Positions 3,001-35,963 of a stretch of 64,000 bases of DNA are shown here, piece after piece (within the stretch, counting starts at the first letter, position 1; each line of letters opens with the position of its first letter). A program made the translations under genes and the position numbers. The stretch spans positions 1,105 through 65,104 of the forward strand of contig JBAZEY010000004.1 of the NCBI GenBank assembly GCA_041653675.1, read 5' to 3'. The notes beneath the pieces were generated by a model. The model worked only from the letters and a program-made list of their open reading frames with translations, did no database searches and was not told the DNA's origin. The DNA comes from Patescibacteria group bacterium. GTDB lineage: Bacteria > Patescibacteriota > Patescibacteriia > XYB2-FULL-38-15.

Positions 3001-6000
3001 AGTGGCTTGGCCGACTTTGGCGTATTTATGACAAGACGAAACCGTATCGCAAAGAGTCTTTTGTCGTCCGGTTTGCGAATCAAAAGTTGAAGTCGTACCC
3101 GAACAAGTCAGCCACTCGCCGCAGACACGATCGCGACGGACCTGGACAAGACGGTTGGAATCATTGCTATTATTGGCAACAGTAATGGGCGTTCCGTCCT
3201 TTTCCAACAAAATCACATAAGGCGAATTATAACTATAGTTTGCGACATCCTGACAACCGAGAGTGGACGACTCGCCGGGGAATCGCTGCGCGCAATCGCT
3301 GTCCGCGCCGCAGAAATCGCCCCAATAATATTCATGGTTCGGTGGGCGAAGAATTTTTTCCAAGCACCTCTTACAATTTTCCCCGCCTTGGCTACAATCA
3401 ATCGGCGCGACAAGCCCGCCGGGATCACCCACCTTTTTTTCAGAACTTAAATAAGTCGCGTTGGCATTTTTGTTTAATTGCGGATTGCTTGTGTCGTTGA
3501 ACAAAACACAACCGCTTTTTTGCGAAGCCATTCCATTACAATTTCCCGAACTAATTTTGTCGTTGTTAACATAATAATAAGCCGCGCCGTACGGATCGTC
3601 GGAAGTGTCGCCCGGATCGGTAAATTTAGTGCATTGATCAGCCTGCGGAATACATTCACCCGCCCAACCGGAATACGGGCAAGAACGTTTGTTATAAGAG
3701 ACAGTGCAAGTTGTTCCAGCCTTACCCGTAGCTGTCACACCCGCCGTGCCACCGCCAACCGGAACCGGACCGCAACGACAAACACCATCGCCGTCTCCTT
3801 CCGGATCAATGCCGTCTCCCGGTTTATCTTGACAAACATAGGGCAGACTGCAATTGGCATCACCATTTTTCCAAATATTATAATATCCGCCGTTGAAGTT
3901 TGCCGGATCGCAAGGAGTAAGCGGGTCGGATGCTTTTTCTTGTTTTTTAAACCATCCGGAAACATTTTGCCCGCCAAGATTTACATTATCTTTCCATTCA
4001 CAAAGTCTATTTCCCGGATCTTTAAAATATAATTTTCCGCCGTCGGTCGTGGTATACTCTTCGCAACTCAAGAATCCAACTTGGCAGAGAATTCTGCCGG
4101 TCGGAGAATTATATAACGCCGGATCGGCCAGGAGATTTACCGTATTGTAAACCGGCTTGCCGCTATCGTCGATTTTCACATTGCCCGCGGCATCCAAGGT
4201 CGGCGAACCGAATTCAGCGCAACCTTTGTTTTGCGCGGCGCATTTATACGCATCGTTCACCACGATATAGGCAAAAGAGTCGGTTGGAATAGTAACGTTG
4301 TCAGACAATCTTTCCTCGTCCGAGAGAGACGGATCACTATCGTTTTCCGTATTAAACGTCTCCATGCTCGCCGCTATGTTGTTGTTGGTCTTTAATAATT
4401 TAGCGCAACCGGCCGCGTCGGGCGAACAAAGCCGCGAGAATGATTTTAGATAATGAAGTCCGTTCGCGCGATCATAGTAACTCGCGCAACCGAGTTGGGC
4501 TTGCGGCAAAAGCGCGGAAAGAACACATTCGTTTCGTTCACTCCACGATCCCCCGCTCGCGACACAAAAATCCAAACTGGTAATTGATGTGTTAACCGCG
4601 AAAGACCGGTCGCAGGAAGTTGGCGTCACCCAAGAATTTTTAACCACATAAATGTACGACTGAATTTCTCTCAAAATAATATTATCGAGATAAACCGGCG
4701 TCGTTCCGCCCGCCGCGGCAATTCGTAAAGTTTCGCCTCCGCCGACAACATCCCAATCAACATAAACCGGACCAAGTGAAAAATATCGCCAGTCAAAAGA
4801 AAGATTAGTTACGTTTCTTGTCGCTGAACTAAATCCCTTATCAGCGGAAGTGGCGCCCAAAAATTTAATATCCAATCTGCTATTTCCCTTGGCCCAAAAA
4901 GACAAGGTGTAAAAGCCATTTTTCCGGACCGAGGAAGCAAGATTTTTATCTATCGTCCCCGTGGCGCCGAAAGACAAAGATTTTCCGCCGACAACCAATG
5001 ATTCGGAACTTATAGTCGGTATGTCTGCTTCATCCCAACCGGTTGCCGCGCCATCGGCGGCGTCATCAAAAGTATCATTCAAAATTACCGCCGTGTTTGC
5101 TCCGGCATTTCCGCGATAAGCCCGGCATCCGACCGCTTCGTTTCCACATGATCGTGATTCGGGCAAATAAACATTATAAGCACATTCACTCTTTACCGTG
5201 TCCCATCTCCCCCCCGATGAGCCGCAATCACTGGCGCTGGAAATTGTTTTGCGGTATGGGTGGCAATCGTCAGTCGCGACGATTGTTTTGGAATATAGAC
5301 GATAATGTTTTAAACCGGCCGCGTCATAAAATTCTCGGCAGTCAGGATTAGTTAAAGTATCAGCTTTAGTACAAAGGCCAACCAAAGAAAGTCCATCGCA
5401 AGTTAAGCCGTCGGGCATAAGAGCCGTACATGGAGGAACACCGCCGTCCGGAGAAACGCCGTTACCCGGATCGCTGTCCGAAACCGGAGCGCTAACTACG
5501 TTACTCATTTTCAAATTCCAAGTTTTTAACTGATATCCAGTCGTATCAGATCCCTCCCAAGTATAGAAAGACTTCGAAGTCGCGCCTGGTTTTTCGCAAC
5601 GGCGGACATAATTGAAATTTGCCACGGCTTCATTTTCCAAACTCGTGAATTGATCGCAGCCAACATCCGCGGCGCTGCAAGTTCGCCCGGTCGCAGGAAT
5701 AAAATATACCGGAAATTTATCTTGTTCAAAATCAGTTTCAACTTGTTTAAAAGTCTGATAGCCAACGCACTCGGCCGGACAATAATCATCAGGATAATTA
5801 GCTACGCCTGGCACTGACGGATCACCATTTGTCGGTCGGTATTCATCGCAGCCCACGTCTTTTTCTTCGCAAGCCCTGGCAAAATTTCCGCATTGCTCGG
5901 CATCGTTTGTTTTATTCAATGCGCCGGAGGCGGTGTAGTCATAGCAAGAATAGTAATCCGGCGCGGTTTTTAGATAAAGCGCTTCGCCCGTTCTTCCCCA

Positions 6001-8420: not shown

Positions 8421-9182
8421 TTATTTTTTCACCGTCTCTTCAAAAATTTTCATCAACGTCGCGTCGTCAACGCTATTTAACGTTGATTCGCTAACTCCGG
8501 CTTGGCGTAAAATTTCTCTGAGTTGCGCCGGCGTCATTTCGTTCGCATTAACATTGGTCGGCAAGGAAGAATTTATATTGGCATTAACATTACCGCCTCC
8601 CGCCACCCCGCCGGATTCTTTTAAAGTTTCATTGTAAAGTTCCAGAAGAGTTTCGTCGTCAAGGTTTGCGAGCGTCGCTTCGTCAACTCCGGCGGTTCGA
8701 AGAGCATCCCGGACTTCTTCTGCTGTCGCCGTACCCGTCAAAAATCCCCCAAGCTCTTCTTCTACCGAAACCTCTTCCGGAATTGTCTTGGCTTTTGCCG
8801 CGCCCTCTTCTATTTTTAAACAGGTTTTCCCTGCCGTACAATTTGGATCGTTCCCTGAAGTTACTTCTTCTTTATCGGAAAAACCATCTGAGTCAGAGTC
8901 GGCTAAGTACGCACTTGTACCATAAAGATATGTCTCGTCGTAATCAGTAAACCCATCACCGTCAGTATCGGTTTCCTGCATCGTGGCTAATCTTTCCGCC
9001 TCTTCTTCAAACTGTGTTTTCCACAACCCCTTGTCTTGGCCATATTTTGCAAAAGGAGCGCGCAAATATTTTGGATATTGCCAAATCGTTCCCAAAACTA
9101 TAACCACGCTTAAAATAACCAAAATCGTCACTCCGACTCTGATTCGGCGCTCTTTTCCCGGTTCTTTTTTGATTTCTTCCAT
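8421..9182 (-). CDS. Single-pass membrane protein with thrombospondin type-3-like DxDxDG Ca-binding motifs and a tandem ~36-aa C-terminal repeat
   Basis: N-terminal TM segment VGVTILVILSVVIVLGTIW. Motifs TDTDGDGFTDYDE and DSDSDGFSDKEE. Two repeats of the form AEEVRDALRTAGVDEATLANLDDETLLELYNETLKE. Stop lies 11 nt upstream of the giant ORF start. Confidence 0.7.
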   Translation of the reverse strand: MEEIKKEPGKERRIRVGVTILVILSVVIVLGTIWQYPKYLRAPFAKYGQDKGLWKTQFEEEAERLATMQETDTDGDGFTDYDETYLYGTSAYLADSDSDGFSDKEEVTSGNDPNCTAGKTCLKIEEGAAKAKTIPEEVSVEEELGGFLTGTATAEEVRDALRTAGVDEATLANLDDETLLELYNETLKESGGVAGGGNVNANINSSLPTNVNANEMTPAQLREILRQAGVSESTLNSVDDATLMKIFEETVKK

Positions 9183-10530: not shown

Positions 10531-11680
10531 TTAACGCGTACAACGCCGTCATTGCCGCGGCTAAAATAAAAAGCGCGATCCAACTATCCGGAAAAAAGAA
10601 AAGAGTGACAAGGGCAAGCGCGCTCACAATAAGTTTTCCCAAAACTAGAGCCATCTGAAGAAAAATAACGCAATTCATCACGCTGGTTTTTTTCGCTTCT
10701 TCGTAAGTAATAGACGCGAGCGGAACGCCGACGGTTCTTCTTGAAATTCTGTATAATGAGTCGGTCATAAAAACGCCAACTCCGGAAATTACTAAAACTC
10801 TCATAAGCCAAGTAAAGGCCGTAAAAATAACTCCGATTTTTAAAACTTCGTGTCTTGACTCTTCATCCGTAATTCTTCCAATATATAAGGTTAAAATTGT
10901 TGCCACAAAGACGGAGGCAGAAATTAAAAATCCGATGGAAGCATAGGCCGGAATCATTAAAAAAATAAAAATTGGCCAAAGATAACCGGCCAAATGTTCT
11001 TCGCCAAAACCAAAATAAGAAAAAAGTTTTCGTCGATTCTCGGGCGCGACTAGCCGCTTCATTGAATCCCGATAAGAAAAAGGTACTGGCTCAAATTTTT
11101 CCGGAGTGGTGAGAAGAGGGATATTGGAAACTAGAATCAAAAAGGCAACAATAATAAACAAAACTTTAAATCCGACGGTCGCAATGACGACGCCGCCGAA
11201 AGCCGGTCCCAAAATCATTACGATAGAATCAAGCACCACTAAATTGGAAATCTCCCTGCCGCGCGATCCATCTTTACCGAAACGAGCAAAATCGGCGTGG
11301 TAACCCGGCCAATAAAGCGTTTTTTGGATGGCTAAAGAAATGACCGCGCTTACAATAAAAAAAGGATGGTAGGGAATGGCAAACAACGACAAGTAAAAGA
11401 GAATTAAAAAGGGCGTGGAAAAAAGTATGGCGTGTTCGTAGCCGCGACTACGGGCAAATTTTCCGCCAAGCGGTACTAATAAAAAGTACAGGGCGTAAAC
11501 GGCAATATAAAAAATCAAAATTTTGGATAAAGAAAATCCCAGGGTGTAAAGATAGATAGGCTCAAAAACGCCAACCGCCGAAACGGCAAAATCTAAAATC
11601 GCCGTCGACCAAAAAAGCTCCTTTAATTCCCGCGACATGCCATCCGCGAAATAACGATGATAAAAATTACGTAAAAACAT
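10526..11680 (-). CDS. Polytopic membrane transporter, MFS-like
   Basis: About 12 predicted TM helices across 384 aa with Gly/Pro-rich loops; no specific substrate motif recognised. Confidence 0.6.
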   Translation of the reverse strand: MFLRNFYHRYFADGMSRELKELFWSTAILDFAVSAVGVFEPIYLYTLGFSLSKILIFYIAVYALYFLLVPLGGKFARSRGYEHAILFSTPFLILFYLSLFAIPYHPFFIVSAVISLAIQKTLYWPGYHADFARFGKDGSRGREISNLVVLDSIVMILGPAFGGVVIATVGFKVLFIIVAFLILVSNIPLLTTPEKFEPVPFSYRDSMKRLVAPENRRKLFSYFGFGEEHLAGYLWPIFIFLMIPAYASIGFLISASVFVATILTLYIGRITDEESRHEVLKIGVIFTAFTWLMRVLVISGVGVFMTDSLYRISRRTVGVPLASITYEEAKKTSVMNCVIFLQMALVLGKLIVSALALVTLFFFPDSWIALFILAAAMTALYALI

Positions 11681-22104: not shown

Positions 22105-23094
22105 CTACAAACTCAATTTAAAACTCTTTATCATCATTTCAAAAGTGCTTTTATAATTCAATTCTGTTTTGCCCCCGAGACTATACGTAATGGCATAAAT
22201 TTTATCCCCCGAAGCGAAATAAGCTGTAAGCCCGTCAGGACTCTTTTTTCCGAGAAGGCCACTCTTAGTCATAACATCACTAAGTTCAGATGGACTAGTT
22301 CCGGGTGACTCAGCTAAATACCAATCCAAAAGCGGCAAACGATTCTGATTATCATCAATAACTACTTCTATAAGCTCTCCCGTGGCCGAAGTGAAAAGAA
22401 CTTCTCTCCCCGTTTCATCAAGAGCTCTCGCGATCCAAAGTGATGGATAAAAAACAGAATATTTAAAAGCTTGGCTATTATAAATTTTTACTAAATTTGT
22501 TTCTTCAATTTTCTGCGGAGCGAGGCCTGTCGGGTTATATAAATTTAAAATTTCCAGCGCGTCAGAATAAGAATCACCGTCGGTATCCGCGGTATTTTGA
22601 TCTGTACTAAACAAAGTTTCTTCAATGTCTGTTAACCCATCTCGGTCAGTATCAGCCGACGACGGTAGTTCAGCTGACGGCTCTGGCAATGGCGCGGGAC
22701 AATCGGCAAGGCATGTGATAGTACTCTCCCCTGATTCGCATGTGCCATTTCCACAAACTGGCGCCGGAGGAACATTAACAGGAACATTTACCGGAGTATT
22801 AACTGGCGGTACGTTCGCATTCACGGGCACGTTTGCCACCGTGTTGGTGTTAGCTGACGGCGTGGTGCTAGTCTTTGGTTTGCTGGTCAAACTTTGAGTA
22901 AAAAGATAGGCCGCAACGGCAACTAAAATTATAACAATAACAGCCATCGCAATAATTAATGTTGATTTTGACCCGCCGCTCTTCCCTTCCTTCGGAACTT
23001 TTACTTTCTTAAAATAAAATTGCTCCGGCATGGCCTTAATCTCGACCGGCGGTTCTTCGGCAATATTAATTGGTTTTGGCTCTCCGTTTGGCAT
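22105..23094 (-). CDS. Single-pass membrane protein with Pro/Val/Asn-rich linker, one CGNG Cys module, TSP3-like DxDxDG repeats and a C-terminal globular domain
   Basis: TM segment LIIAMAVIVIILVAVAAYLF; NVPVNANVPPVNTPVNVPVNVPP linker; CGNGTCESGE module; DTDRDGLTDIEE and DTDGDSYSD motifs. Confidence 0.65.
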   Translation of the reverse strand: MPNGEPKPINIAEEPPVEIKAMPEQFYFKKVKVPKEGKSGGSKSTLIIAMAVIVIILVAVAAYLFTQSLTSKPKTSTTPSANTNTVANVPVNANVPPVNTPVNVPVNVPPAPVCGNGTCESGESTITCLADCPAPLPEPSAELPSSADTDRDGLTDIEETLFSTDQNTADTDGDSYSDALEILNLYNPTGLAPQKIEETNLVKIYNSQAFKYSVFYPSLWIARALDETGREVLFTSATGELIEVVIDDNQNRLPLLDWYLAESPGTSPSELSDVMTKSGLLGKKSPDGLTAYFASGDKIYAITYSLGGKTELNYKSTFEMMIKSFKLSL

Positions 23095-23100
23095 AATATA

Positions 23101-23352
23101 AGATTTAAGATTGCAGATTTAAGATTTAAGATTTTGTAGTGAATGTTCTAAACCATAAAGCATTTTTGAGCATTCCTCATAATCTCTAATAAAATATTCT
23201 ATTTTTTCTTCCGATAAATACTTCTTTTCAAAAGCCATTTTCAAATGATGTTTTGTTTCTCTAATTTCTCCTTGAGCGCGACTAATACATTCTGTATAAA
23301 TGTTAATCTTCAACTCGCACGCCTTTAATCTTTAATCTTAAATCTTTAATCT
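23101..23352. repeat. AGATTTAAGATT-family inverted-repeat cassette enclosing a truncated four-helix-bundle gene
   Basis: Left arm agatttaagattgcagatttaagatttaagatttt (23101-23140). The reverse complement of the right arm (23320-23352) is ccatagattaaagatttaagattaaagattaaagg. Confidence 0.55.
23119..23313 (-). pseudogene. C-terminal half of a four-helix-bundle (IVS-protein/Avd-like) gene; N-terminal half absent
   Basis: ISRAQGEIRETKHHLKMAFEKKYLSEEKIEYFIRDYEECSKMLYGLEHSLQN aligns to the C-terminal two helices of the family. The upstream in-frame stop lies inside the flanking repeat. The annotated start is TTG. Confidence 0.6.
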
Positions 23353-23356
23353 ATGG

Positions 23357-24007
23357 TTATGGCTGCTCCAATAATCTTCCCGGCCCTTTCGGATTATATC
23401 CGGCTGTCACTTCCGCTCCATCCAAATATCCGTCACCATCTGTATCGGGATTTAAAGGATTAGTGAAATAAAGATTGACCTCGTCGCCATCTGTAAGCAC
23501 GTCGCCATCTGTATCGGGGTTTGTCGTATCAGTCCCGAGAGCTATTTCTTCTGTATTAGTTAAACCGTCACCATCTAAATCAACTTCTCCTGGGGCGGGA
23601 ATAACCGGCGCAGTTTCCAGAACTTCCGGTGGAACCTCTGCCGGCGTTTCATTAATATTGGATGGAATTTCAGCTGGAATATTTACTAGCGGCAAATTGG
23701 TATTTTGATTAGAAACGGTCGGAGTTTGTGTTCCAGTTTCTTCGGGCGCACTAGAAAATTGTCTCCAAACAAAATATCCGCCGCCGCCAAGAATTACAAC
23801 TAAAATCACGGCCGCTAAAACCAAAAACATTTTCTTTTTCCCCGGACCCCCAGCTTCCTCGCCGACTTCTTCCGGAGTTGCACCAACAGAAGCGGCTCCC
23901 CCGGGCATGCCGGGCACGGTCGGCGAAAGCGCGCCGGCCGGTCTTAATGGTTCTTGTTTCGTCGGCTCCACGCCGGCAAACATGTCTTCTGGTTCTTTGT
24001 CAAACAT
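23357..24007 (-). CDS. Single-pass membrane protein with TSP3/dockerin-like DxDxDG Ca-binding repeats
   Basis: TM segment FLVLAAVILVVILGGGGYFVW; motifs VDLDGDGLTNTEE, NPDTDGDVLTDGDE and NPDTDGDGYLDGAE. Confidence 0.7.
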   Translation of the reverse strand: MFDKEPEDMFAGVEPTKQEPLRPAGALSPTVPGMPGGAASVGATPEEVGEEAGGPGKKKMFLVLAAVILVVILGGGGYFVWRQFSSAPEETGTQTPTVSNQNTNLPLVNIPAEIPSNINETPAEVPPEVLETAPVIPAPGEVDLDGDGLTNTEEIALGTDTTNPDTDGDVLTDGDEVNLYFTNPLNPDTDGDGYLDGAEVTAGYNPKGPGRLLEQP

Positions 24008-24062: not shown

Positions 24063-27000
24063 CTATCTCACGGTAAACTCACCGCTTCGCTCTTGACCCA
24101 CAGTAGTCATATCACTGCCTCTAAATAACTCTCCTTCACTGGCAGAAAGACTCCAGACAAGAGCAGATCCAGTTCCAGTGCTAAGATTGTATCTCCCCGC
24201 GCCAGTTGTGCCATTGTAAACAATCCGGAAATTGTGCAAACCTCTTGATAAAGTACTGATCACTAGATCTCTTCTGCAATCCGGTGTAAGTCCTCCGCCG
24301 GGAGCAGCACATATACTGGCATTAGTTATACCAACCTTATGGCCATCAATATAAACTTCAAAAACATCAGCCGCATTATTACTGCTCACATGCAGACTTA
24401 TCGTCGCACAGTCCGTCGCGTCATCCATACAGCCGTCGGTTCCACTATCATCATTCGGATCGCAAGCGTCAATTATTTCATCACTGTCAGTATCTGGGCT
24501 ATATCTTAGCCTGCAGGTTTCGCCAGCTGGACAATCACCAGTAACTCTACAAATCCGAGAAGCAGTAGCGCTACAGGTTCCCGTAGATTCATATTTTCTA
24601 TTATCACAAGCCCGACCCGTGGCGCAAGTAATCGCGCAAGACGAAGGACTGCAACCCGGCGAAGTCGGTGTGGTGAGATCTTGTGGCTTGCCCCAAGGAT
24701 TTGAAGTATCAACACAAATCCAACTCGCGGGATATGCCGGCAGACGGCTATCGCATTGTTCCGCGCCGCTCACTGTCCCATCGCCGCAAGTCGGACCGCT
24801 CGCCGTTCTTAACGTGCATTCACGGCTGCAATAATTACAAGTTGATCCATATGGCGCCGTACAAGGCGTACCGTTTACATCTTCGCCGGAATCGCACGTT
24901 TCTATTCCCGCTCTCGTAAATCCATCACCACAACTAGAATTCTGGCAATCTACACAAGCGTCTGTATCTACATCATTTGCGTCATCGCATTGTTCACCAC
25001 CTTCAACCGTGCCATTGCCGCATTCGCCGGTTACTGTGCAAACACCCCAACCTTCATCTCGCCACTGGCATTGTCTTACATCTCCCGATACCTCGCATTC
25101 CAAGGTTCTAACGCGCGGATATCCCGTCCCGGCTTCCGGAGAACACAATAAACATTCTTCTTCTGGTTCCGCGCAGTCCGAGTTGCTCTCACAAACTACA
25201 TTAAAATCATCTGAAAGAATGGGGCTGGCCGGACTCAAGTGTTCATCAACCGGAACACAAACTCCTCTCCCGGACAATAAATTTCTATCACATTCTTCTC
25301 GACCATCGGTCACGGTATTTCCGCAAAATGGCGCCGACCCGACACAACCCGCCGCGCAAATCGGTCGACAAGTGCTGCCCGGACAATCGCTGTCCACACG
25401 ACACGACGATCTATCATTATCACAAATTTTTCCATAATTTCCATTAAGACCTTCATCGTCGCACCGCTCGCCAAATCCGCTTTGCAAAATTCCATCTCCA
25501 CAATAACCGCCACTCATTCGGCAGACAGTAGAACATTGATATTCATTCGTCGGCAATGTCCCGCCTCCCGGAATTCTTCCTCCGCCCGGACCGCGATCGC
25601 AAGCTTCACCCGTATCAATAATCCCATTTCCGCAAGTAGGAAGACACGACCCCCAATCATTCCATCGACAAGTAGCTAAATTACAAGTTCGGCTTTGCCG
25701 ACCCGTTCCACTGCCGCAAGATTGTTCGCTCGTGCGGCACGTTCCGCCCGTAGCAACGCAATCCAAATCACTGCGGCAAAAACTTGTCGGATCCGAAGAA
25801 CATGTATTTAATAAACTCGGTTCGCATTCTTCGGCTTCGTTTTCCGGCGTCGCCGGATTATCAACATTTAGTATTCCATCACCACAAACTCCACCCACAC
25901 TGAAAGTTGTACCATCGCAAACATTTTCATATTTAATGTAGGCTGGAATAGCGTCTCTAAACCAACTCCAACTCGGAAGAATTATCGCGCCCGATGAATT
26001 AGTAAGCTTGTGTTCCAAATCACCGCCAATATTATAAAATCCCGTAGCTGATTCGTAACGATATTGGTAAATATGAGACAAATCGGGACAGTGGTAAGAT
26101 TCTGCGCTCGTGTTCCAACAAGTGTCAGGATTATAAGGATCTACGCAACCCTGAAATTTATTTACCGGATCTTGTGGTAATCCTCCGCCGAGTTCCTGCC
26201 CAAGCACGGCCCATGAATCCCACTTGCTCGTGGAAATCCCTCGAACATACGAACCGGCTTCCAGTTTTGGCGGATAACCTCGCGTCATCATATATCTTTC
26301 CACCTCGGCTTTGATTTTATCTAAATCAGATAAACGTTTAACATCACGGGCCAATTTATCTTTTGGCGCATCACACAAAGATTGTGTCGGAGTTTGTGGA
26401 CAATCCAAATCAGCCGAACAAGGAATCGCTTGATCATCTTCGTCCGTGACAGTTGCCGCGCCGCGCTTACAAACTTTATTATTTTCCAAATTAATATTAA
26501 AATTCCAATTTTCTACCAATTGATTATAAATATCAATTGTGTCCTGGCTGGCATCTTCATTATATGAAATCAAATAAACGTTTGTATAAATGTCTGGCCC
26601 GGAACTAGAGCCGCCAATAAGCGCCGGCTGGTTTGCCGCGGAAACATAAATTGTCCGACCATCTTCCACGGCTTGATATTGATCAACCGTTTTCCCACTC
26701 GGAGACGCCGGTCTGAATCCTTGGGCCGTGTACCAATCGGATAAAGCAAGGTGGTTTTCATTTGTATAAATTCTAATACCGATCGCGTCGGGCGAAGATT
26801 GGCAAGATCCGCCTTCCGGGGCGCACGGATTTTCCGTGTTACAAGGCAATTTGGAAAGGGTACAATAACTCCCCTGAACAAATAAGAAATATTCTCTGAG
26901 TAAAAAGTCAGATGATCCCGGCGGCTCCGGCGGATTATTTACAATCGGCGGATCGCTAACCGTCGGTAAATCATCGCTAAAACCAAGCTCTCCTCTGTCC

Positions 27001-30000
27001 TGGCAATAATATGTTTCAAAATTATATGTTTCATCAGCTAACCCTTCGCCCGTCACGCCAAATCTATCTGGCCATGGATTTTCACAAAGAAAAACTATCG
27101 CGTCGGCCCCGCTACCCAACACTCGTCCCACGGTTCGGGGAGATAAAATTGTATCGGCAGTAATTCTCGCTGAAACTAAAATTCTTGCTTCTCCGTTTTT
27201 ATTTTCCGCTTTCGCCTCTTGGCTAGCATTAAGTTCGCAAACTCCGCCGTCTCTACAATCGCTCGCGCTGTGACAAATTGCAGTCGATTCATTGGAACAA
27301 GCGCCTTCGGGATTTAAGCTAACTACTGTTGGATCGTTAGACACCCAATCTTCCCATTGCCAAGCGTACACCCCGGGCAAGGAAGAAATCGCTCTCCCCC
27401 GCGTGTCTCTCGGTATGGCGGAAAAATTGTGTGTTTCACCACTCTGCGTAAAAACATGAACCTCCGGCGTAAATGTCACTTGGCTCAAAGCACAAATGTC
27501 ACCGCCCGTCTTAAACGACCATTCATAAATTTCCCTGCCGCTGTAGGCCGCGGGGTATTCACCGGATAAGCTACCTCCACCCAACGCCACGCCTTTTGAA
27601 TTTCTAATCCCCTCAATCTCGGGCGTTGTAGAATTGTCACCTAAAATCAAAACTCTATAGTCATTATCACTATCAAAAGCTTTAGTTGGACTAAAGCTTA
27701 CTTCCGTCACCAAATTTCCACCTTTATTTACAACAACAGACGACGCTGTTCCCGGCCAGACGCACCACGGACTTCCCGGCGCGGCGCTCGCCGGCTCGCC
27801 GAGCAATGATTGCCCAAATTTATTGACGAAATCTTTTACTTGGCTAAAAATCTTTAAATCATTCTCAATTTTATTAATCGGCTTAACCAATATTCTCGCA
27901 ATCGGCGGAGGCAGCCACTTCTTTATTTTTTCAAAAAATTGCCAACCGGATTTTCCTTCGCCGGTCCATAGAGCTAATTGTACCGTTCCGTCAGGACACG
28001 TCCCGCCGTAATTGCCGACGACTAAAATATTACCCGTGACGCTCGCTGTTTCCATTACATCGTCAAATGTCACAGAAATTCTGGCATTGCGGCAAACTTC
28101 AACCGCTCCTGAATCACAACCAACCGCGCCATCCCGAGTGGGATCGCAGTTTGTCACTTTTGGTTTAAAGTAGCAACATGTGTTGCGGCCAACTCCCAAT
28201 TCGCAATCAGCGTCAGTTGTGCAAGATTGTGAAGTTGTTCCTGAACATATATTAGAAGTTGAAATACACGACAAACGAATTGCACTGCAATCCTGACCGC
28301 CGCAGCGCAAAGTCAAATCGCCGCTGTCGGATTTTCCCTCTGTCGCGGCTGAAATTTCCGTGGTGCTGGAATTTACTCCGGCCGCCACGTCCTCCGTGGC
28401 AAGATCAATTGCTTCGGCCGTTTGGTATGGATCAATTCTCGCGTCCGTGACTGTTCCTTCATTTAAGCAAGTATCACTGCAACCCGGCCCTGGAGCGTTC
28501 CCATCGTCGCAATCTTCACCGCGTTCTTTCGCCCGATTTCCACAAACTCCCCCGCCAGCCACAGATCCTTCGTGTTGGCAAATATTATTACATCCATCCC
28601 CCGAACGAGTATTTCCGTCATCACAATCTTCGCCAATTTGAATTATGCCATTACCACAAGTTGAATCATAACGCGCGTTTGATCCTTCGTTCAAACAAGT
28701 CGCATTACAACCATCAAGCGTTGCCGTATTGCCATCGTCACAGTCTTCGCCAAATTCTTTTACGCCATTTCCGCAAGATGGATAATTATTATCATTGGTA
28801 ATTGTTGCCACTCCTGGATCAGCCGATGCCCAGCCCCAATTATAATCCATAGCACCAAGCTGCTGGCCGTTCGGGCTACAGAGATCTGGCTCGCTGAAAG
28901 GCGTGGAAGAATAATTTTGCGTCGCGCCGATAAAATTCAAAATCGCGTTTTGCGGATCAACTGCCACGCGATCCACGGCGCAAGGACTGGCATCATCTTT
29001 AGTTTTGAAAGTCCAAGAGTAAGCAGAAAAAGCCGCCGGGTCGCCGGCCGGATAATTTAAATCAGTCAAATGGACGCCGCTCGTTGAAGTAACACGATCA
29101 GAAATAACGGCGCGATAATAAGTATTCGGCGTAAAGAGCACTAAAGGCTCAATAACCATTTTTTTTGCGACCGAATCGTAAGAAGTTCCTGCCAGAGAAA
29201 CTTCCTCCAGAGCTCTCGTTCCTTCATTTAAACAAGTTGTCGCGTTGCAGTTGGCCGGGAATGGAGATCCGTCACAATCTTCACCTTCTTCAACCAGGCC
29301 ATTACCGCAAACCGCGGCGGCGCCATCGCTGCCGATATTTAAACATGTGGTGCGATTACAACGCTCCGGAAATGGCACACCGTCGCAATCTTCACCGGTT
29401 TCGCGGCGATCATTGCCACAGTACGAACCATAAAGCGCGTTTGACCCTTCATTCAAACAAGTCGCGCTGCAACCGTCGCCTGCCGTCGCATTGCCGTCAT
29501 CACAATCTTCACCGGGCTCAATCACGCCATTGCCGCATTTCCAAATATAAAGATTAACATTTGCCGCGCTCTCCACGCTCGCCTGATTCATGTTTGTATT
29601 AAATTCCGCGCCGACTTCCGCGTTAGCGCAAGCATCACTGCAGTTCGGCCACGCATTTTCTACTCTTGGGTCTGTAAAATTAATTGTCAAATTTCCTGAG
29701 CCAAATTTACTTTCACTTGGAATTCCGCCGGTAATTCGAACCGGCAAACCAACTTCTGTTTCCGCCCGAGCCGTGGCAACTTCACTCGGAGTAATACTAC
29801 CAGCCACAGTGGCTTTTGAAATATCTGACGAAGTCCAGCGCCAAGGACTATAAGCGCTGCAATCAATTGTTATGCAAACATCGCCGGCCGCATAACACAA
29901 ACTATCATAATTCTGTGTCGCCCCAATACTTACTAAAGTCCGTTCATACGGAGAAACCCCAACTAAACCGATATCACACGTCTCGTCGCTGTCGCGGGTT

Positions 30001-32975
30001 TTAAATTGCCAAATATAATCGCCACCTTCCACTCCATCTCGGTCGCCATCCAAGAAAAATCCCCCATCCGGACAACCGGCGCCTCCAAGACAGCTTTCTA
30101 TTCCTGTGCCGGCAACCGCGTCACTTTTCAAAGTCACCTGATACCAAGTATTTTGCGTCCACTTTCTTCCTACCGGCAACAACTTAAGTTCAAAACCATC
30201 TTGATGGTCATCAATGTCACTAAATCTAACACTGCTGCCAGTAACCTCTGCTTTCGTCGTACAGGTTTGATCAGAACAGCTTTCAACTAAAATATTTGAT
30301 GTATTTACTGATGCTGGATTTATTTTTGTCGTGAAGCGCGCCGTTATTGTGGCGTTAACACAAACTCTCTCTCCTCCATCTCTGCCAGACCATGGTGAAG
30401 GTGAAGCCGGCCCCGGCGGTGGGGGATTGCTGCAGCTTTCTACCACTTGCGGATAAATCGGAAGTTGGCCAGTGGAAAATTGCCAGAAATAATACCCTTT
30501 ACCCGCGGCCGCAGCGCACGCTACGGCGCAACTGCCATCACGGCAACATTGCTGGCCGGAAGAACAAGTGGCGCCCGTGCGACAATCTTGAACTATAAAA
30601 TTAACACTATTTCCCGTTGCTCCCCCAGAAGTAACATTAACCGGACCGGTTTGGGTTCCGGTCGGAACAGGCGTAGAAATTTGTATGCCGTCAGTTGGAG
30701 TAACAGTCGCAGGAGTTGACCGATAAAAATTAACTAAAGCCGACGCGCCAAAGCGCTCGCCATCAATTCTCACCGGCAAATCAATCGGTCCATTGTCCGG
30801 AGTAATTTTACAAATTCCCGGACCGGCCGTTCCAGAATCAACCGTAAAATCCGATGTTGTTAAATCGCTTGTATCATCAGACTGGCCACCCGCGGTTCCA
30901 GCAGTCGTAATTTTTATAACATCTGTAACCGCGCCGGTCGGAACTTTTACAATAATTTGATCGTTTTTCCACCAATCAGCTCCGCAAGCCGCAGGAAAAT
31001 CTGTCGCGGCCAAAAGATCCGCGCCGCCGATATCTTTAAAAAATACTTGGCCGGTTTCATTGAGAAAATTGGCGCCAAAAATTGTCACGTACTCGCCTAT
31101 TGGCCCATGCGTCGGAGAAAAACTTAAAATTCTTGGCGCTTCGGCCGTGGCGACAACTTGGAAATTAATTGGATTGCTGTTTTCACCGCCAACCACGACT
31201 TGTACTGGAACCGTAGCCGGAGCGATTAAAGGTACAACCGCGCCAATGCTCGTGGGAGTCCAGAGACTAACTCGTTCTGCTCGTGTTCCGCCAAAAATTA
31301 TTTCACTTGTTCCTTGTGTCGCGCCAAATTGAGTGCCAGCAACAACTACTTCAATTCTCGGCTCGCCATTATCCGGCGTAATTGAACAAATTCCCGGCCG
31401 GCTTGTATCATTTATATCAAAATTTGGCAAAACCGGACCGCGCTCATCATCAGTTTGATCGGTATAGTCAGCTGCGGTCGCGCCGGTTGGCGGAGGCACC
31501 ACAACTTTTACCGGACCATCAGTCGCGCCAGCAGGAACAACCGCGATAATCTGATTATTTTGCCAAGTAGCTGAAGCAGGACAAGCCGGCGTTCCAGATA
31601 AAACATTATTAAAATAAACTTGGCCGGAAATATCTCCAAATCCTTGGCCAAAAATTGTCACGTAATTTCCTACTGCTCCATCGTTTGGCGAAACGGCAGT
31701 AATTTCTGGTAGAGTTCGGCAAACTCCGCCAATACATGATCCTCCGCGGCAATCTGTTCCGCTCGTGCAAGATCCTCCGTCGCAAGTTCCGCAATCCGCG
31801 CCACCACAATCAATATCTGTTTCATCCGCGTCCTGTCGCCCGTTAAAACAATGCGCCGCCCGGACAATTACGTCCACGCCGCCAGAAGTAGTATTATTGG
31901 AATCAATATCAAAAGCTTTCGTCGTCAAAGTATGTCTTGATCCAGCCGTAACGCCAGTTGTATCCCAATCAAAAATTGATGAATAGTCACGCGGCGTTGG
32001 ACCAGAGGGTGCATCAGTTCCAAGCGTTCCGCCATTTGAAAAATATTCCAAATAAGAAATTCCCGCGTCGTCTGTCGCGTGCGCCTCAATCGAAACTATC
32101 GCGTCAGCCGAAACAGAAGCGCCCGGATTGGGAGAAGTGATTCTTACTTCCGGCCCGGTCACGTCAACTAAATTTCCTGTTGTAAAATTGGCCGTACAAT
32201 TTGGCGCGAGTCCGCCACAAACTAAAAATTTTCCATCAGTACTTCGGAGACCGGTTGCCGCTTCCACCGTAAATTCCGTGTCCGCGTCAAAACATTTTCT
32301 GTCAACGTTCGGTGCCGGACAATTGGCACTCGGAACGAATTCCACGACCGTTCCGGAAGCGCTCGCTGTTCCGTCCACTAAACTTCCGTCAGCCGTCACG
32401 GTTAAATTTCCCGCTAAAGTTGTCGCGTCAACATTTTTGTTAAAAACAACGCGCACGACAACATTTCGAATTGGTATAGCGCCATTCGGCTGAATTCCGC
32501 GGACAACAAATGAATCAGACGGCAAACCACCGCCACCGCCTCCTCCACCACCGCCACCGCCTCCTCCACCACCGCCACCGCCTCCTCCACCACCGGTAAT
32601 GCCCGTCGCTTCCATTAATCTATTCATAACATACTGGGTGATGCCAAAAGAGAAAATAATAATAATCAAACCTATCAAAGCATTAACCAGAATTTTTTTG
32701 GCCTGCGATATCCGCTCCTCATTGCCGCCAGCCGTCATCCAAACAAAACCGCCGTAAATTACAATGGCTACGGCGACAATCCCCAAAAATCCGAGCGCTA
32801 CACGAATAATTTGCGCCGCGACCACTCGCGGATCTTCCGTCGGTAGAGCAATTTCATTTCCCACTTCATTCACCCCAAAATCCTGGGCGAAAATAGTTGT
32901 AGCAAACAAAAACGCACCCGTAATCAAAAACAGGGAAAAAAGAAATTTTAAAATTTTCTTCTCGTGTGGTTTCAT
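24063..32975 (-). CDS. Giant (2970 aa) Cys-rich cell-surface protein with N-terminal VirB2/TrbC-pilin-like double-TM domain and poly-Gly linker
   Basis: After the signal peptide (cleavage ...TIFAQ-D), LGFLGIVAVAIVIYGGFVWMTAGGNEE ... LIGLIIIIFSFGITQYVMNRL ... TGGGG parallels Ti VirB2 and RP4 TrbC. A run of about 24 Gly follows. Several CGNGxxExGEDCDDGNxxxGDGC repeats; beta-rich extracellular modules. Confidence 0.85.
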   Translation of the reverse strand: MKPHEKKILKFLFSLFLITGAFLFATTIFAQDFGVNEVGNEIALPTEDPRVVAAQIIRVALGFLGIVAVAIVIYGGFVWMTAGGNEERISQAKKILVNALIGLIIIIFSFGITQYVMNRLMEATGITGGGGGGGGGGGGGGGGGGGGGGGLPSDSFVVRGIQPNGAIPIRNVVVRVVFNKNVDATTLAGNLTVTADGSLVDGTASASGTVVEFVPSANCPAPNVDRKCFDADTEFTVEAATGLRSTDGKFLVCGGLAPNCTANFTTGNLVDVTGPEVRITSPNPGASVSADAIVSIEAHATDDAGISYLEYFSNGGTLGTDAPSGPTPRDYSSIFDWDTTGVTAGSRHTLTTKAFDIDSNNTTSGGVDVIVRAAHCFNGRQDADETDIDCGGADCGTCDGGSCTSGTDCRGGSCIGGVCRTLPEITAVSPNDGAVGNYVTIFGQGFGDISGQVYFNNVLSGTPACPASATWQNNQIIAVVPAGATDGPVKVVVPPPTGATAADYTDQTDDERGPVLPNFDINDTSRPGICSITPDNGEPRIEVVVAGTQFGATQGTSEIIFGGTRAERVSLWTPTSIGAVVPLIAPATVPVQVVVGGENSNPINFQVVATAEAPRILSFSPTHGPIGEYVTIFGANFLNETGQVFFKDIGGADLLAATDFPAACGADWWKNDQIIVKVPTGAVTDVIKITTAGTAGGQSDDTSDLTTSDFTVDSGTAGPGICKITPDNGPIDLPVRIDGERFGASALVNFYRSTPATVTPTDGIQISTPVPTGTQTGPVNVTSGGATGNSVNFIVQDCRTGATCSSGQQCCRDGSCAVACAAAAGKGYYFWQFSTGQLPIYPQVVESCSNPPPPGPASPSPWSGRDGGERVCVNATITARFTTKINPASVNTSNILVESCSDQTCTTKAEVTGSSVRFSDIDDHQDGFELKLLPVGRKWTQNTWYQVTLKSDAVAGTGIESCLGGAGCPDGGFFLDGDRDGVEGGDYIWQFKTRDSDETCDIGLVGVSPYERTLVSIGATQNYDSLCYAAGDVCITIDCSAYSPWRWTSSDISKATVAGSITPSEVATARAETEVGLPVRITGGIPSESKFGSGNLTINFTDPRVENAWPNCSDACANAEVGAEFNTNMNQASVESAANVNLYIWKCGNGVIEPGEDCDDGNATAGDGCSATCLNEGSNALYGSYCGNDRRETGEDCDGVPFPERCNRTTCLNIGSDGAAAVCGNGLVEEGEDCDGSPFPANCNATTCLNEGTRALEEVSLAGTSYDSVAKKMVIEPLVLFTPNTYYRAVISDRVTSTSGVHLTDLNYPAGDPAAFSAYSWTFKTKDDASPCAVDRVAVDPQNAILNFIGATQNYSSTPFSEPDLCSPNGQQLGAMDYNWGWASADPGVATITNDNNYPSCGNGVKEFGEDCDDGNTATLDGCNATCLNEGSNARYDSTCGNGIIQIGEDCDDGNTRSGDGCNNICQHEGSVAGGGVCGNRAKERGEDCDDGNAPGPGCSDTCLNEGTVTDARIDPYQTAEAIDLATEDVAAGVNSSTTEISAATEGKSDSGDLTLRCGGQDCSAIRLSCISTSNICSGTTSQSCTTDADCELGVGRNTCCYFKPKVTNCDPTRDGAVGCDSGAVEVCRNARISVTFDDVMETASVTGNILVVGNYGGTCPDGTVQLALWTGEGKSGWQFFEKIKKWLPPPIARILVKPINKIENDLKIFSQVKDFVNKFGQSLLGEPASAAPGSPWCVWPGTASSVVVNKGGNLVTEVSFSPTKAFDSDNDYRVLILGDNSTTPEIEGIRNSKGVALGGGSLSGEYPAAYSGREIYEWSFKTGGDICALSQVTFTPEVHVFTQSGETHNFSAIPRDTRGRAISSLPGVYAWQWEDWVSNDPTVVSLNPEGACSNESTAICHSASDCRDGGVCELNASQEAKAENKNGEARILVSARITADTILSPRTVGRVLGSGADAIVFLCENPWPDRFGVTGEGLADETYNFETYYCQDRGELGFSDDLPTVSDPPIVNNPPEPPGSSDFLLREYFLFVQGSYCTLSKLPCNTENPCAPEGGSCQSSPDAIGIRIYTNENHLALSDWYTAQGFRPASPSGKTVDQYQAVEDGRTIYVSAANQPALIGGSSSGPDIYTNVYLISYNEDASQDTIDIYNQLVENWNFNINLENNKVCKRGAATVTDEDDQAIPCSADLDCPQTPTQSLCDAPKDKLARDVKRLSDLDKIKAEVERYMMTRGYPPKLEAGSYVRGISTSKWDSWAVLGQELGGGLPQDPVNKFQGCVDPYNPDTCWNTSAESYHCPDLSHIYQYRYESATGFYNIGGDLEHKLTNSSGAIILPSWSWFRDAIPAYIKYENVCDGTTFSVGGVCGDGILNVDNPATPENEAEECEPSLLNTCSSDPTSFCRSDLDCVATGGTCRTSEQSCGSGTGRQSRTCNLATCRWNDWGSCLPTCGNGIIDTGEACDRGPGGGRIPGGGTLPTNEYQCSTVCRMSGGYCGDGILQSGFGERCDDEGLNGNYGKICDNDRSSCRVDSDCPGSTCRPICAAGCVGSAPFCGNTVTDGREECDRNLLSGRGVCVPVDEHLSPASPILSDDFNVVCESNSDCAEPEEECLLCSPEAGTGYPRVRTLECEVSGDVRQCQWRDEGWGVCTVTGECGNGTVEGGEQCDDANDVDTDACVDCQNSSCGDGFTRAGIETCDSGEDVNGTPCTAPYGSTCNYCSRECTLRTASGPTCGDGTVSGAEQCDSRLPAYPASWICVDTSNPWGKPQDLTTPTSPGCSPSSCAITCATGRACDNRKYESTGTCSATASRICRVTGDCPAGETCRLRYSPDTDSDEIIDACDPNDDSGTDGCMDDATDCATISLHVSSNNAADVFEVYIDGHKVGITNASICAAPGGGLTPDCRRDLVISTLSRGLHNFRIVYNGTTGAGRYNLSTGTGSALVWSLSASEGELFRGSDMTTVGQERSGEFTVR
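32528..32596. repeat. Perfect 3x tandem 21-nt repeat encoding the poly-Gly linker
   Basis: The unit gccaccgcctcctccaccacc occurs three times on the plus strand, in frame (7 Gly per unit). Confidence 0.7.
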
Positions 32976-34103: not shown

Positions 34104-35963
34104 TTATTCTATCGGCCACGTGCAACCCGCGCCGACGGGATCAGTGCAACTTGTTCCAGCAGCTGGCCCAACTGGTTCATAAAAACAATTTTGATAAATA
34201 TCTTTAATTCTATGCGTCGCCCGCGGAAAATATCTTACGAGATTCTCGTCAACCGCCGCGCCATCAGCGCAAGTCGGCGCCGGAGCAGGCGCTTCAGTGC
34301 TCTCAATAAACTCCCCATGATAAATTATTGCTTTATGTTTTACCGGCGTTCCTCCGCGCGGTGTGGGCACGCCAAGGGCGTCTGTCCCCTCCCCTCCCAA
34401 AGTAAACCAAACGGCGCAAGCGTCGCGTTCGTTATCATCTAAAATTATATTTTCTGAAGAAAAACTAGTCACACTCATTGGTTTACTAAATCTAAATTCA
34501 ACCGGCGCGTCGAGCGCTACATCACTTCCACTCGCCGCTGGTAGGAGAGTTTCAATTCTCGGCGGAATTAAATCAATTGTATTATTGGTAGCAAAATCCC
34601 AAGCATAATTATCGGTTGGCGGACCTTCGGCCACGTCATCTCCGTCTCCGTCTAAAGAATTTCCTACCACGTCAGTCGCACCAGTGTAAGGCATTTCTGC
34701 TTCTGGCGGAGTTGTACCTAGACGCGCGGCTTTTACATTCACGGAAATATCAGCATCAGCGGGCAAACAAAAAACATCACCGCCGCAGGAATTTGTCCCA
34801 CATCGAAAATCGGTTGTAAATTCTATAGTTTTATATTGATTGCCAATCGCCCAAGTTCCAGCAACGGGTCCGGGAACCGGCACACCGTCGGCCAAAACTT
34901 CAATTTTATCAAAACCTTCCGCCGTTTTGCCGGCCACGGTTGTCGGATCCATGGCTTCGTCAAAATTTACTTGAACTAAAATATTTCTGGCGTTTGTCGT
35001 TGCGTCTCCCGGAATTACGCTTTCCACTTCTGGCGGCGTAACATCAACAAAAGTGCTCACTTCAAAATCCCAGGCATAACCATCACTAAACGCGCCAGTA
35101 AAGGCGTCTCCTCCGTCGGCCTTTTTCAAACCAGGCTTTAACGCCACCGTATACCAAATATTTTCCGATGGACTCCCTAAAAGTTCCGCCGGATCAAAGG
35201 TGAAATTTTTTAAATCAGTCGTGAAACCAACCCTTGCCTCGCCCGGCTCCAAATAATTGATCACGCCACCCGCACCGGTTTCTCCCTGGAGGGATTGATA
35301 AATTCTAATATTTTCGCTCTTTATCGGTAAAACCGTTGCCGGAGTGACGGCCACGCCTCCGAGTGTATCATCTCCAGGATTGGCCGGATCGTTAATCTCA
35401 TAACCTTCAATAATTGTATCCAGCGCCATTGGCTCTTTGAAAGTGATAATAACTTTTGTATTTCGGGCAATGCCCGTGCCGCCGCGTGGTGGATAATGGC
35501 TTTCAATAATACTATTGCCAAGTGCGCCGGAGTAGCGGCCAACCGCCGGCGGTCCGCCTCCTCCGCCGCCCGCGCCTCCTCCGCCGCCCAAGGCGCTAAT
35601 CAACGTATTTAATACATATTGTGTAATTCCAAACGCCATCAAAATAATCACTAAACCAATCAAGCCATTTGTTAAAATTTTCTTGGCGGTGGCAATTTTT
35701 TCTTCATTCCCGGCTGAAGTCATCCAAACAAAACCGCCGTAGAGCACAATGCCCAGCGCGACAACTCCCAAAAATCCGAGTACAACTCGGATGATTCTCG
35801 CGGCAATCACGCGCGGGTCGCCATCAACCAGAGCAATCTCATTTCCCACTTCGTTTAATCCAAAATTCTGAGCCAAAGCAATTTGGACAAACAAAAGACT
35901 GGCCGTGATAACGGTCAACCCCATTAAAATCTTTAACGCCCTTTTAACTTGCATGTGCGGCAA
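34104..35963 (-). CDS. 619-aa paralog with VirB2/TrbC-pilin-like N-terminal domain, poly-Gly linker and extracellular beta-rich region
   Basis: AQNFGLNEVGNEIALVDGDPRVIAARIIRVVLGFLGVVALGIVLYGGFVWMTSAGNEEKIATAKKILTNGLIGLVIILMAFGITQYVLN is nearly colinear with the N-terminus of the 2970-aa protein; GGGGGAGGGGGGPP linker follows. Confidence 0.8.
   Translation of the reverse strand: MPHMQVKRALKILMGLTVITASLLFVQIALAQNFGLNEVGNEIALVDGDPRVIAARIIRVVLGFLGVVALGIVLYGGFVWMTSAGNEEKIATAKKILTNGLIGLVIILMAFGITQYVLNTLISALGGGGGAGGGGGGPPAVGRYSGALGNSIIESHYPPRGGTGIARNTKVIITFKEPMALDTIIEGYEINDPANPGDDTLGGVAVTPATVLPIKSENIRIYQSLQGETGAGGVINYLEPGEARVGFTTDLKNFTFDPAELLGSPSENIWYTVALKPGLKKADGGDAFTGAFSDGYAWDFEVSTFVDVTPPEVESVIPGDATTNARNILVQVNFDEAMDPTTVAGKTAEGFDKIEVLADGVPVPGPVAGTWAIGNQYKTIEFTTDFRCGTNSCGGDVFCLPADADISVNVKAARLGTTPPEAEMPYTGATDVVGNSLDGDGDDVAEGPPTDNYAWDFATNNTIDLIPPRIETLLPAASGSDVALDAPVEFRFSKPMSVTSFSSENIILDDNERDACAVWFTLGGEGTDALGVPTPRGGTPVKHKAIIYHGEFIESTEAPAPAPTCADGAAVDENLVRYFPRATHRIKDIYQNCFYEPVGPAAGTSCTDPVGAGCTWPIE

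Follow-up and report, generated by a model that had tools for sequence, protein, structure and literature searches.

In Myxococcus xanthus, the cysteine-rich (Cys-rich) receptor TraA forms a 1:1 complex with its operon partner TraB, a protein with thrombospondin type 3 (TSP3) repeats that anchors the TraAB complex in the cell envelope (PMC12045341). Large Cys-rich extracellular proteins proposed to function in attachment are also encoded by candidate-phyla-radiation (CPR) bacteria such as the Peregrinibacteria (PMC4736985), and giant proteins of the Omnitrophota carry internal dockerin and TSP3 repeats (bioRxiv 10.1101/2023.11.21.568195). Here we describe three small membrane proteins with TSP3 repeats (P1, P2, and P3) encoded close to two giant genes (giant A and giant B) in a stretch of 64,000 nt from contig JBAZEY010000004.1 of a Patescibacteria group bacterium (the window, whose positions serve as coordinates throughout; Table 1). 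This chromosome stretch is rich in housekeeping genes and Falkowbacteria-like within the Patescibacteria (CPR). The majority of Patescibacteria have not been cultured and presumably live attached to host cells. We found no description of small TSP3 membrane partners of giant genes in Patescibacteria/CPR in the open-access literature.

P1 and giant B form a gene pair that is conserved well beyond the window. The P1 stop codon ends at position 8421 and the giant B ATG is at 8409, which leaves exactly 11 nt between the two genes, the distance given in the initial annotation. A scan of one genome per GTDB species with the P1 family yielded 384 relatives of P1, of which we kept the best 80 loci, which came from Komeili-, Uhr-, Magasanik-, Falkow-, Buchanan-, and Kerfeldbacteria and other Patescibacteria. 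A giant-B homolog directly follows P1 on the same strand in 67 of the 68 loci whose downstream DNA measures 1.5 kb or more; in the exception (L082), the homology to giant B begins 3.2 kb downstream of P1. Such co-localization is far beyond chance. Furthermore, the median distance from the P1 stop codon to the first ATG of the giant gene is 9 nt (45 of 63 gaps fall within −20 to +30 nt), which suggests coupled expression of P1 and giant B. The initial annotation would have been refuted by motifs that match no Ca-binding repeat profile and by homologs that lie away from giant genes. Neither is the case: the TSP3_bac profile matches the repeats (see below), and the homologs lie beside giant genes, P1 in the loci just described and P3 and P2 downstream of a pilin-anchored giant in every long contig examined.

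The P1–giant B pair is also kept where KsgA, encoded just upstream of P1 in the window, is absent or displaced. In two Uhrbacteria loci, L036 (9334–9467 region) and L081 (9334–9720), the place of KsgA is taken by an Hsp20/alpha-crystallin-like gene that adjoins P1 upstream and is preceded by VanW-like and SMC genes (identities assigned by eye), and in L006 five genes are inserted between KsgA and P1 but the pairing with giant B is retained. The window genes located 1–4.5 kb upstream of P1 (MFS, epimerase, and RF1) are present in only 10–20 of the best 80 loci, and local gene order is thus not generally frozen. A mirror-tree analysis of 55 genomes, subject to the caveats usual for such analyses, lends modest support to the link at the level of sequence divergence: the correlation between P1 and giant B (r = 0.51) falls to a partial r of 0.40 given KsgA (permutation p = 5e-4), and the reverse partial correlation of P1 with KsgA given giant B is 0.11. 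Dozens of the GTDB species-representative records with the KsgA-P1-giant B arrangement are titled ‘uncultured Gammaproteobacteria bacterium’ (L013, L015, L018, L019, L023–L025, and others). These titles are probably a labeling error in deposited metagenome-assembled genomes, because the gene content of the latter matches Patescibacteria.

All five genes (P1, P2, P3, giant A, and giant B) are open reading frames (ORFs) of the minus strand. Hydropathy analysis bears out the single N-terminal transmembrane (TM) helix that had been assigned to each small protein, identifying one strongly hydrophobic segment of 19–23 aa in P1 (aa 16–34), P2 (aa 44–66), and P3 (aa 60–81). The segments of P1 and P2 are long helices in AlphaFold2 (AF2) models. 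A charged or long N-terminal region precedes the TM segment in all three proteins, which are therefore predicted to be signal anchors with N-in/C-out topology. The DxDxDG motifs quoted in the initial annotation are present as well and, within the window, are exclusive to these proteins: the pattern D.D.D[GSNDE]..D..E has five matches when the 64 kb are translated in six frames, and all of them (5/5) are inside the P1, P2, or P3 ORFs. No full DxDxDG..D..E motif was found by motif scan in the window copies of giant A and giant B.

The repeats of the three proteins belong to one homologous unit. Scanned as whole proteins, P3 and P1 exceed the 25-bit gathering cut-off of the Pfam family TSP3_bac (PF18884), with 55.2 and 30.9 bits, respectively. 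The repeat segment of P2 scanned alone is below it (15.2 bits, E=0.02). However, hhalign pairs the P2-family and P3-family repeats over 54 columns with a probability of 98.8% (E=8.7e-17) and the P1-family and P3-family repeats with a probability of 99.1%, and precomputed PF18884 matches are present on several P2 orthologs. The unit common to the three families reads DTDGDGLxDxEE..Y.T.P...DTDGDGY.DG.EV..GYNP.G, and its acidic Ca-ligand pattern (DxDxDGxxDxxE) is invariant in all three family alignments. The presence of one homologous double-TSP3 unit in all three proteins makes them paralogs that differ after the repeats. Homology to TSP3 repeats suggests that the repeats of P1, P2, and P3 bind Ca2+. 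The loops had been called TSP3, dockerin, or EF-hand-like, and only the first of these assignments stands. We rejected membership in the EF-hand families, as EF-hand_1/5/6 reach about 10–12 bits (E=0.24–0.78) versus cut-offs of about 25; the dockerin assignment is discussed below.

The TSP3 domain itself is already known, and relatives of P1 and P3 carry the NCBI name ‘thrombospondin type 3 repeat-containing protein’. P1 and P3 have the same DxDxDGxxDxxE Ca-loop repeat as other TSP3_bac (PF18884) proteins, such as the OmpA-TSP3 proteins of Bacteroidota, and the NDPNCP..C loop of P1 recalls the disulfide-dependent Ca binding of OmpA TSP3 repeats attributed to Dai et al. (2017, as cited in PMC12045341). 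P1–P3 differ from these proteins in having an N-terminal TM anchor, exactly two to three repeats, C-terminal modules that depend on the family (either helical motifs or a PsbP fold), and a fixed genomic partnership with giant genes. Among solved structures, the best sequence match to the repeats (DYDKDGLLDRYE...DTDGDGKNDGDE) comes from Staphylococcus aureus Bap, in its Ca-binding segment (PDB 7c7r/7c7u, E=0.0097–0.074), with 37 residues aligned by Foldseek at 0.7 A root-mean-square deviation and 40% identity. The Bap matches are weak and short, and the Bap loops are inside the large surface protein itself.

Members of the P1 family have a variable basic N-terminus, the TM helix, a short helical stalk, the repeat core, a variable linker, and one or two helical motifs. 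The core is near-invariant (DTDGDGLxDYDE-LYxYxTSPYLxDSDSDGFxDKxE-IxSGNDPNCPxGxxC); D72, D74, D76, D80, E83, D95–D99, D103, E106, and the two cysteines (C115 and C121) are invariant across the family. The C-terminal motif is a three-helix unit of 37 aa (LRxxLxxxGxDxxxLxxxDDxxL) that is duplicated in P1 itself and present only once in some members. No conserved cytoplasmic motif was seen in the family alignment, and a Foldseek search of the PDB with the P1 model returned nothing significant and no dockerin. The P1-family profile matched mainly de novo designed helical repeat proteins in the PDB via the C-terminal motif, which is uninformative. Similarly, P1 aa 153–253 (8424–8726) gave only weak matches to de novo designed helical repeats and to SAP/RecX-like three-helix motifs at E>0.01.

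The window contains the N-terminal 2803 aa of giant B, and this portion has no Pfam or NCBIfam domain match. Homologs of giant B are 30–42% identical over about 2000 aa, and the domains found in 16 of them include CBM_4_9 (10/16), PA14 (1/16), and Dockerin_1 (1/16). Each of the 44 full-length homologs has just one N-terminal hydrophobic segment; an AXA-like site comes after it in 42 of them, and a P..A.A pattern is visible by eye in many of the N-termini. C-terminal TM helices and LPXTG motifs are absent from all 44. Since its one hydrophobic segment is the predicted signal peptide, giant B would be left without an anchor of its own after cleavage by signal peptidase. Cysteines make up about 3.9% of the homologs, with dozens of invariant positions. 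From its sequence, giant B thus looks like a secreted, disulfide-rich, glycan-binding protein. Giant B and giant A belong to different families and give no cross-matches. The giant-B family is best conserved in the N-terminal ~1,500 aa and most of the protein is outside known domains; a conserved C-terminal ending (W..Y/F.G.I.V.P) and many ‘..GC.E(Y/F)..’ cysteine motifs recur in the family (window and loci L006–L088). In one locus (L007, 10817–20810), giant B is shorter (2053 aa) and precedes a second large secreted protein (>1,500 aa) with Pur_ac_phosph_N and Big_7 domains and a faint fn3 match. This pair of large proteins may represent a split or a modular exchange of the giant.

TraA/TraB is the closest functional analog of the P1–giant B pair, a functional resemblance only and not family membership. 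Like the TraA/TraB operon, P1 and giant B (in the 67 of 68 loci above) would be an operon pair of a large Cys-rich surface receptor and a TSP3-bearing membrane partner. Furthermore, giant A has the repeat type of the TraA stalk (TIGR02232 myxo_disulf_rpt, E=3.9e-37) and one giant-B homolog has a PA14 domain. However, TraB forms a beta-barrel in the outer membrane and binds the wall via an OmpA domain, whereas P1–P3 are single-helix proteins of the cytoplasmic membrane with no Pfam match to OmpA (no search for beta-barrels was made). We take the source organism to be monoderm, in line with the general view of Patescibacteria. TraA is also smaller (about 700 aa) and has a MYXO-CTERM tag; the giants described here have about 3,000 aa and signal-peptide or pilin-hairpin N-termini, and the giant-B homologs lack a C-terminal hydrophobic tag. 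TraA and TraB share no sequence homology with P1–P3 or the giants beyond the repeats. The Peregrinibacteria and Omnitrophota proteins resemble the giants in being large or giant, signal-peptide-bearing, and Cys-rich, with a proposed role in attachment. They differ in that a separate small TSP3 partner in the membrane appears in neither report and, in Omnitrophota, it is the giant itself that contains the TSP3 and dockerin repeats.

P3 and P2 are encoded downstream of giant A in a second cluster. In the direction of transcription, the minus strand encodes signal peptidase I, HisRS, YqeY, a 619-aa protein with T4SS_pilin and Big_5 domains, a 346-aa unknown protein, giant A, P3, a 64-aa 23S_rRNA_IVP remnant, P2, YbeY, diacylglycerol kinase (DagK), FtsA, FtsZ, and NrdD. 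After intervening genes there follow RF1, the epimerase, the MFS transporter, a 23S_rRNA_IVP protein, KsgA, P1, and giant B. The initial annotation placed each small gene immediately beside a giant gene, which is accurate for P1 and for P3 (55 nt from the giant A stop codon to the P3 start) but not for P2, which is one gene further from giant A with P3 and the IVP remnant (23119–23313) intervening. We also scanned metagenomes with a trimmed P2 alignment and recovered 17 loci. All long contigs examined have the order YqeY, pilin-anchored giant (1,835–3,443 aa, sometimes split), one to two small TSP3 genes, P2-like gene, YbeY, DagK, FtsA, and FtsZ. The order giant A, TSP3 gene(s), P2 is kept with gaps of 2–55 nt in all 13+ contexts, with P2 identities down to about 30%.

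Giant A has three N-terminal hydrophobic segments and about 2,850 aa of Ig-like and Cys-rich sequence after a VirB2-like pilin hairpin, with Pfam matches to T4SS_pilin, Big_7, TIG, Big_5, and DUF4215 in addition to the TIGR02232 repeats. The T4SS_pilin hairpin is expected to anchor giant A in the membrane by itself. Two window proteins (2970 and 619 aa) fuse such a hairpin to Ig-like surface domains. No VirB4 or other gene of a type IV secretion system was found among the window ORFs scanned with Pfam, and the fusions therefore look like hairpin-anchored adhesins rather than parts of a secretion machine.

The P3 family has an invariant N-terminus (MFD...EPEDIF) followed by the TM helix, a linker rich in P/T/N, three repeats, and GYNPxGPGKL at the end. 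P2 is 100% identical to a protein with the NCBI label ‘Patescibacteria group bacterium’, and its close relatives carry the label Candidatus Falkowbacteria. P2 proteins have the N-terminal motif I..MPE.F, the TM helix, about 80 residues of N/P-rich linker, CGDGxCE cysteine modules that are optional, two repeats, and a 135-aa globular domain. The AF2 model of P2 has predicted local distance difference test (pLDDT) values above 90 for aa 141–329. Foldseek aligned the C-terminal domain to 17 PDB structures at E<=1e-3, with PsbP/CyanoP at the top (E=9e-6 to 5e-5, target-normalized TM-score 0.44–0.54) and then Mog1, Tsi3, and SciW. The domain is below the Pfam cut-offs for PsbP (20.9 versus 23.5 bits) and PsbP_2 (20.4 versus 27 bits). 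As modeled, it is an alpha-beta-alpha sandwich of the PsbP/Mog1/DUF1795 fold, a similarity at the fold level only, and it is likely to act as a binding module. Both P3 and P2 have conserved cytoplasmic motifs ahead of the TM helix (MFD..EPEDIF and I..MPE.F, respectively) and both genes are two to three genes upstream of ftsA-ftsZ, which suggests a cytoplasmic binding partner. The tails of FtsN and PilN bind FtsA and PilM, and the layout of P3 and P2 recalls this.

The 64-aa ORF between P3 and P2 corresponds to the C-terminal half of the 23S_rRNA_IVP profile. It is probably a decayed gene, because an intact 126-aa copy is at the same position in a related genome (L001); a full-length copy of the family is encoded at 10140–10583 (−) between the MFS transporter and KsgA. 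A block of about 28–35 kb comprising YqeY, giant A, FtsA/FtsZ, NrdD/NrdR, HtrA, RF1, the epimerase, and KsgA keeps its order in L109 with protein identities of only 40–50%, an unusually long conserved synteny. At the KsgA end of this block in the window (compared span 8421–36462), P1 and giant B follow.

Table 1. Coordinates of the small TSP3 proteins, the giant proteins, and neighboring features in the 64,000-nt window.
Feature	Position	Strand	Basis
P1, 253-aa bitopic TSP3 protein, conserved upstream partner of giant B	8421..9182	−	ORF; TSP3_bac 30.9 bits; family alignment
P1 TM helix (aa 16–34), signal-anchor type without AXA cleavage site	9081..9137	−	Hydropathy; AF2 helix 8–47
P1 double TSP3 and NDPNC..C disulfide loop (aa 72–121), invariant family core	8820..8969	−	Alignment; motif scan; hhalign
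P1 C-terminal helical motif, copy 1 (aa 153–189)	8616..8726	−	Internal duplication; AF2 helices 154–189, pLDDT 81–92
P1 C-terminal helical motif, copy 2 (aa 217–253), in all family members	8424..8534	−	Invariant R222, G229; AF2 helices 218–252
Giant B, N-terminal 2803 aa of secreted Cys-rich giant, runs off the window	1..8409	−	ORF
Giant B signal peptide (aa 1–40), ...FFYAHPAEA/QLVV (slash, predicted signal peptidase I site)	8290..8409	−	Sequence pattern
P3, 216-aa bitopic protein (TM helix, linker, three TSP3 repeats), next gene downstream of giant A	23357..24007	−	ORF; TSP3_bac 55.2 bits in 3 stretches; alignment
P3 conserved cytoplasmic N-terminal motif MFD..EPEDMF	23978..24007	−	Invariant M1, F2, D8; near-invariant F10
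P3 TSP3 repeats and GYNPxGPGxL cap (aa 143–212)	23372..23581	−	Pfam; motif scan; alignment; Bap 7c7r E=0.0097
P2, bitopic, 329 aa; cytoplasmic motif, TM helix, linker rich in N/P, Cys module, double TSP3, and PsbP-fold domain	22105..23094	−	ORF; alignment
P2 conserved cytoplasmic motif (E)IKAMPEQF (aa 18–26)	23017..23043	−	Consensus IxxMPExF; near-invariant P23
P2 double TSP3 (aa 148–190)	22525..22653	−	Invariant D148, D150, D152, E158, E159, D172, D174, D178, E181; hhalign
P2 C-terminal PsbP/Mog1-fold domain (aa ~196–329)	22108..22509	−	Foldseek; Pfam PsbP below cut-off
Giant A, 2970-aa surface protein with signal peptide, VirB2-like T4SS_pilin hairpin, Ig-like domains, and myxo-type Cys-rich repeats	24063..32975	−	Pfam; NCBIfam
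619-aa second pilin-hairpin and Big_5 surface protein, upstream of giant A	34104..35963	−	Pfam T4SS_pilin, Big_5
23S_rRNA_IVP/four-helix-bundle remnant, 64 aa, outside the system	23119..23313	−	Matches profile positions 60–106 only

The domain content, topology signals, paralogy, and gene adjacency of P1–P3 lead us to propose that these proteins are Ca-binding bitopic tethers or scaffolds for giant adhesins, an explanation to which, taken as a whole, we give an even chance of being correct. In this view, the paralogous N-in/C-out envelope proteins P1, P2, and P3 each expose a double TSP3 unit, carried by a flexible or helical stalk, on the outer side of the membrane, and each is the conserved operon partner of a giant surface adhesin. 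We infer that they bind Ca2+, are co-transcribed with the giant genes, and interact physically with the giants as tethers. P1 and giant B would constitute a two-gene cassette whose products are made together: P1, translated just upstream, would stay in the membrane while giant B leaves through Sec and has its sole hydrophobic segment removed by signal peptidase. Mature giant B, which is about 3,000 aa long, rich in disulfides, and equipped with carbohydrate-binding modules, would then be held or organized at the cell surface by P1 via the Ca-loaded TSP3 core and/or the C-terminal helical motifs. An anchoring role for P1 is plausible because the signal peptide of the giant-B homologs looks cleaved and they lack any further anchor to the membrane or the wall. 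P3, with only the repeats, and P2, with a PsbP-fold domain in addition, may form an accessory scaffold beside the self-anchored giant A. We are far more certain of the identity of P1–P3 as TSP3-repeat membrane proteins and of the P1–giant B partnership than of the tethering mechanism.

Several observations weigh against a tethering role. KsgA is found just upstream of P1 in 66 of 71 loci, almost as consistently as giant B is found downstream, and adjacency alone is therefore no proof of function. The mirror-tree result depends on one short control gene and may reflect evolutionary rates common to surface proteins. Promoter and terminator scans performed near chance and were uninformative, with weak promoter-like sites in the gaps before P1 and P3. 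The cleavage of the giant-B signal peptide is judged from sequence pattern, without a dedicated predictor. In TraB, the TSP3 repeats are a periplasmic linker and are not predicted to contact TraA (PMC12045341). Furthermore, no tether is needed for giant A, which brings a membrane hairpin of its own. The giant A-P3-P2 block also runs unbroken into ybeY-dagK-ftsA-ftsZ, with no genome among the 13+ contexts examined in which the two parts are separate, and P2 and P3 thus cannot be assigned to the giant over the cell-division genes. The Ca-dependent anchoring role suggested in the initial annotation is accordingly plausible for P1 and giant B, whereas a link of P2 and P3 to giant A cannot be told apart from one to the ftsA-ftsZ side. 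Overall, the anchoring idea for the giants is reasonable but unproven.

The unbroken order from giant A to ftsZ and the conserved N-terminal cytoplasmic motifs of P2 and P3 speak for an alternative explanation in which the small TSP3 proteins are general wall or membrane spacers or divisome-associated bitopic proteins that hitch-hike in a conserved gene order independently of the giants. The cytoplasmic tails of P2 and P3 could, for example, dock to a partner such as FtsA, encoded two to three genes downstream. The KsgA-P1 adjacency is consistent with hitch-hiking too, as is the use of TSP3 repeats as linkers in OmpA-type wall-binding proteins, many of which were among our search matches, and in TraB (PMC12045341). 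This explanation is strongest for P2 and P3, although their putative link to FtsA is a conjecture by analogy with PilN and FtsN. It fits P1 less well, given that the P1–giant B pair outlasts changes in the upstream context while nearby genes are not syntenic, that the 9-nt median spacing suggests coupled expression, and that P1 has no conserved cytoplasmic motif. We therefore regard hitch-hiking as rather doubtful for the three proteins together.

Gene order and tight spacing would also suit a dedicated accessory factor that acts only transiently, as a Ca-dependent chaperone or holdase receiving the giants at the Sec exit, and the dozens of invariant cysteines in the giants must pair correctly. 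The PsbP/DUF1795-like fold of P2 could in that case be a client-binding module, as it groups with PsbP/Mog1/Tsi3/SciW, and Foldseek match descriptions identify SciW-type DUF1795 proteins as chaperones of the TM regions of Rhs effectors. However, this fold superfamily is broad and has many functions, the SciW matches are weak (E>0.02), and no recognizable chaperone domain was detected in P1 or P3 (Pfam; Foldseek of the P1 model). Furthermore, a transient helper would still leave giant B without an anchor, and we consider an export or folding role unlikely. Least probable by far is a true cohesin-dockerin system, in which the DxDxDG pairs would be dockerins plugging into cohesin modules of the giants as in cellulosomes. 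The paired Ca loops loosely resemble the duplicated F-hand of dockerins, one of the 16 giant-B homologs has a Dockerin_1 domain, and the concept is similar in that large extracellular proteins would be fixed to an anchor on the cell through a small module with paired Ca loops. However, the Pfam scan found no Dockerin_1 (PF00404) in P1, P2, or P3 even at E<=1, the repeats fit the TSP3_bac profile, and no cohesin was detected with Pfam/NCBIfam profiles in giant A, giant B, or the 16 homologs. The polarity would be reversed as well, with the Ca-loop module on the anchor. The dockerin analogy of the initial annotation fails, and the profile searches of P1–P3 and the giants largely refute such a system.

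Returning to tethering, a more elaborate and distinctly tentative version would envisage a two-component attachment organelle in Falkow-, Uhr-, Magasanik-, and Komeilibacteria. An anchorless, signal-peptide-cleaved, disulfide-rich, glycan-binding giant of about 3,000 aa would be carried on a dedicated, translationally coupled, Ca2+-dependent bitopic TSP3 tether, P1, as a monoderm counterpart of TraAB, and P3 and P2 would couple the pilin-anchored giant to a cytoplasmic partner via their N-terminal tails. The proposed small tether and the giant glycan-binding adhesin make up a testable pair that is conserved in many species-level genomes and offers targets for antibodies, cryo-electron tomography, and heterologous expression. 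Ca2+ chelation is suggested as a simple handle to detach or perturb the giant surface proteins. The finding would also extend the combination of Cys-rich receptor and partner with TSP3 repeats, known from the myxobacterial TraAB system, to a distant and presumably monoderm phylum.

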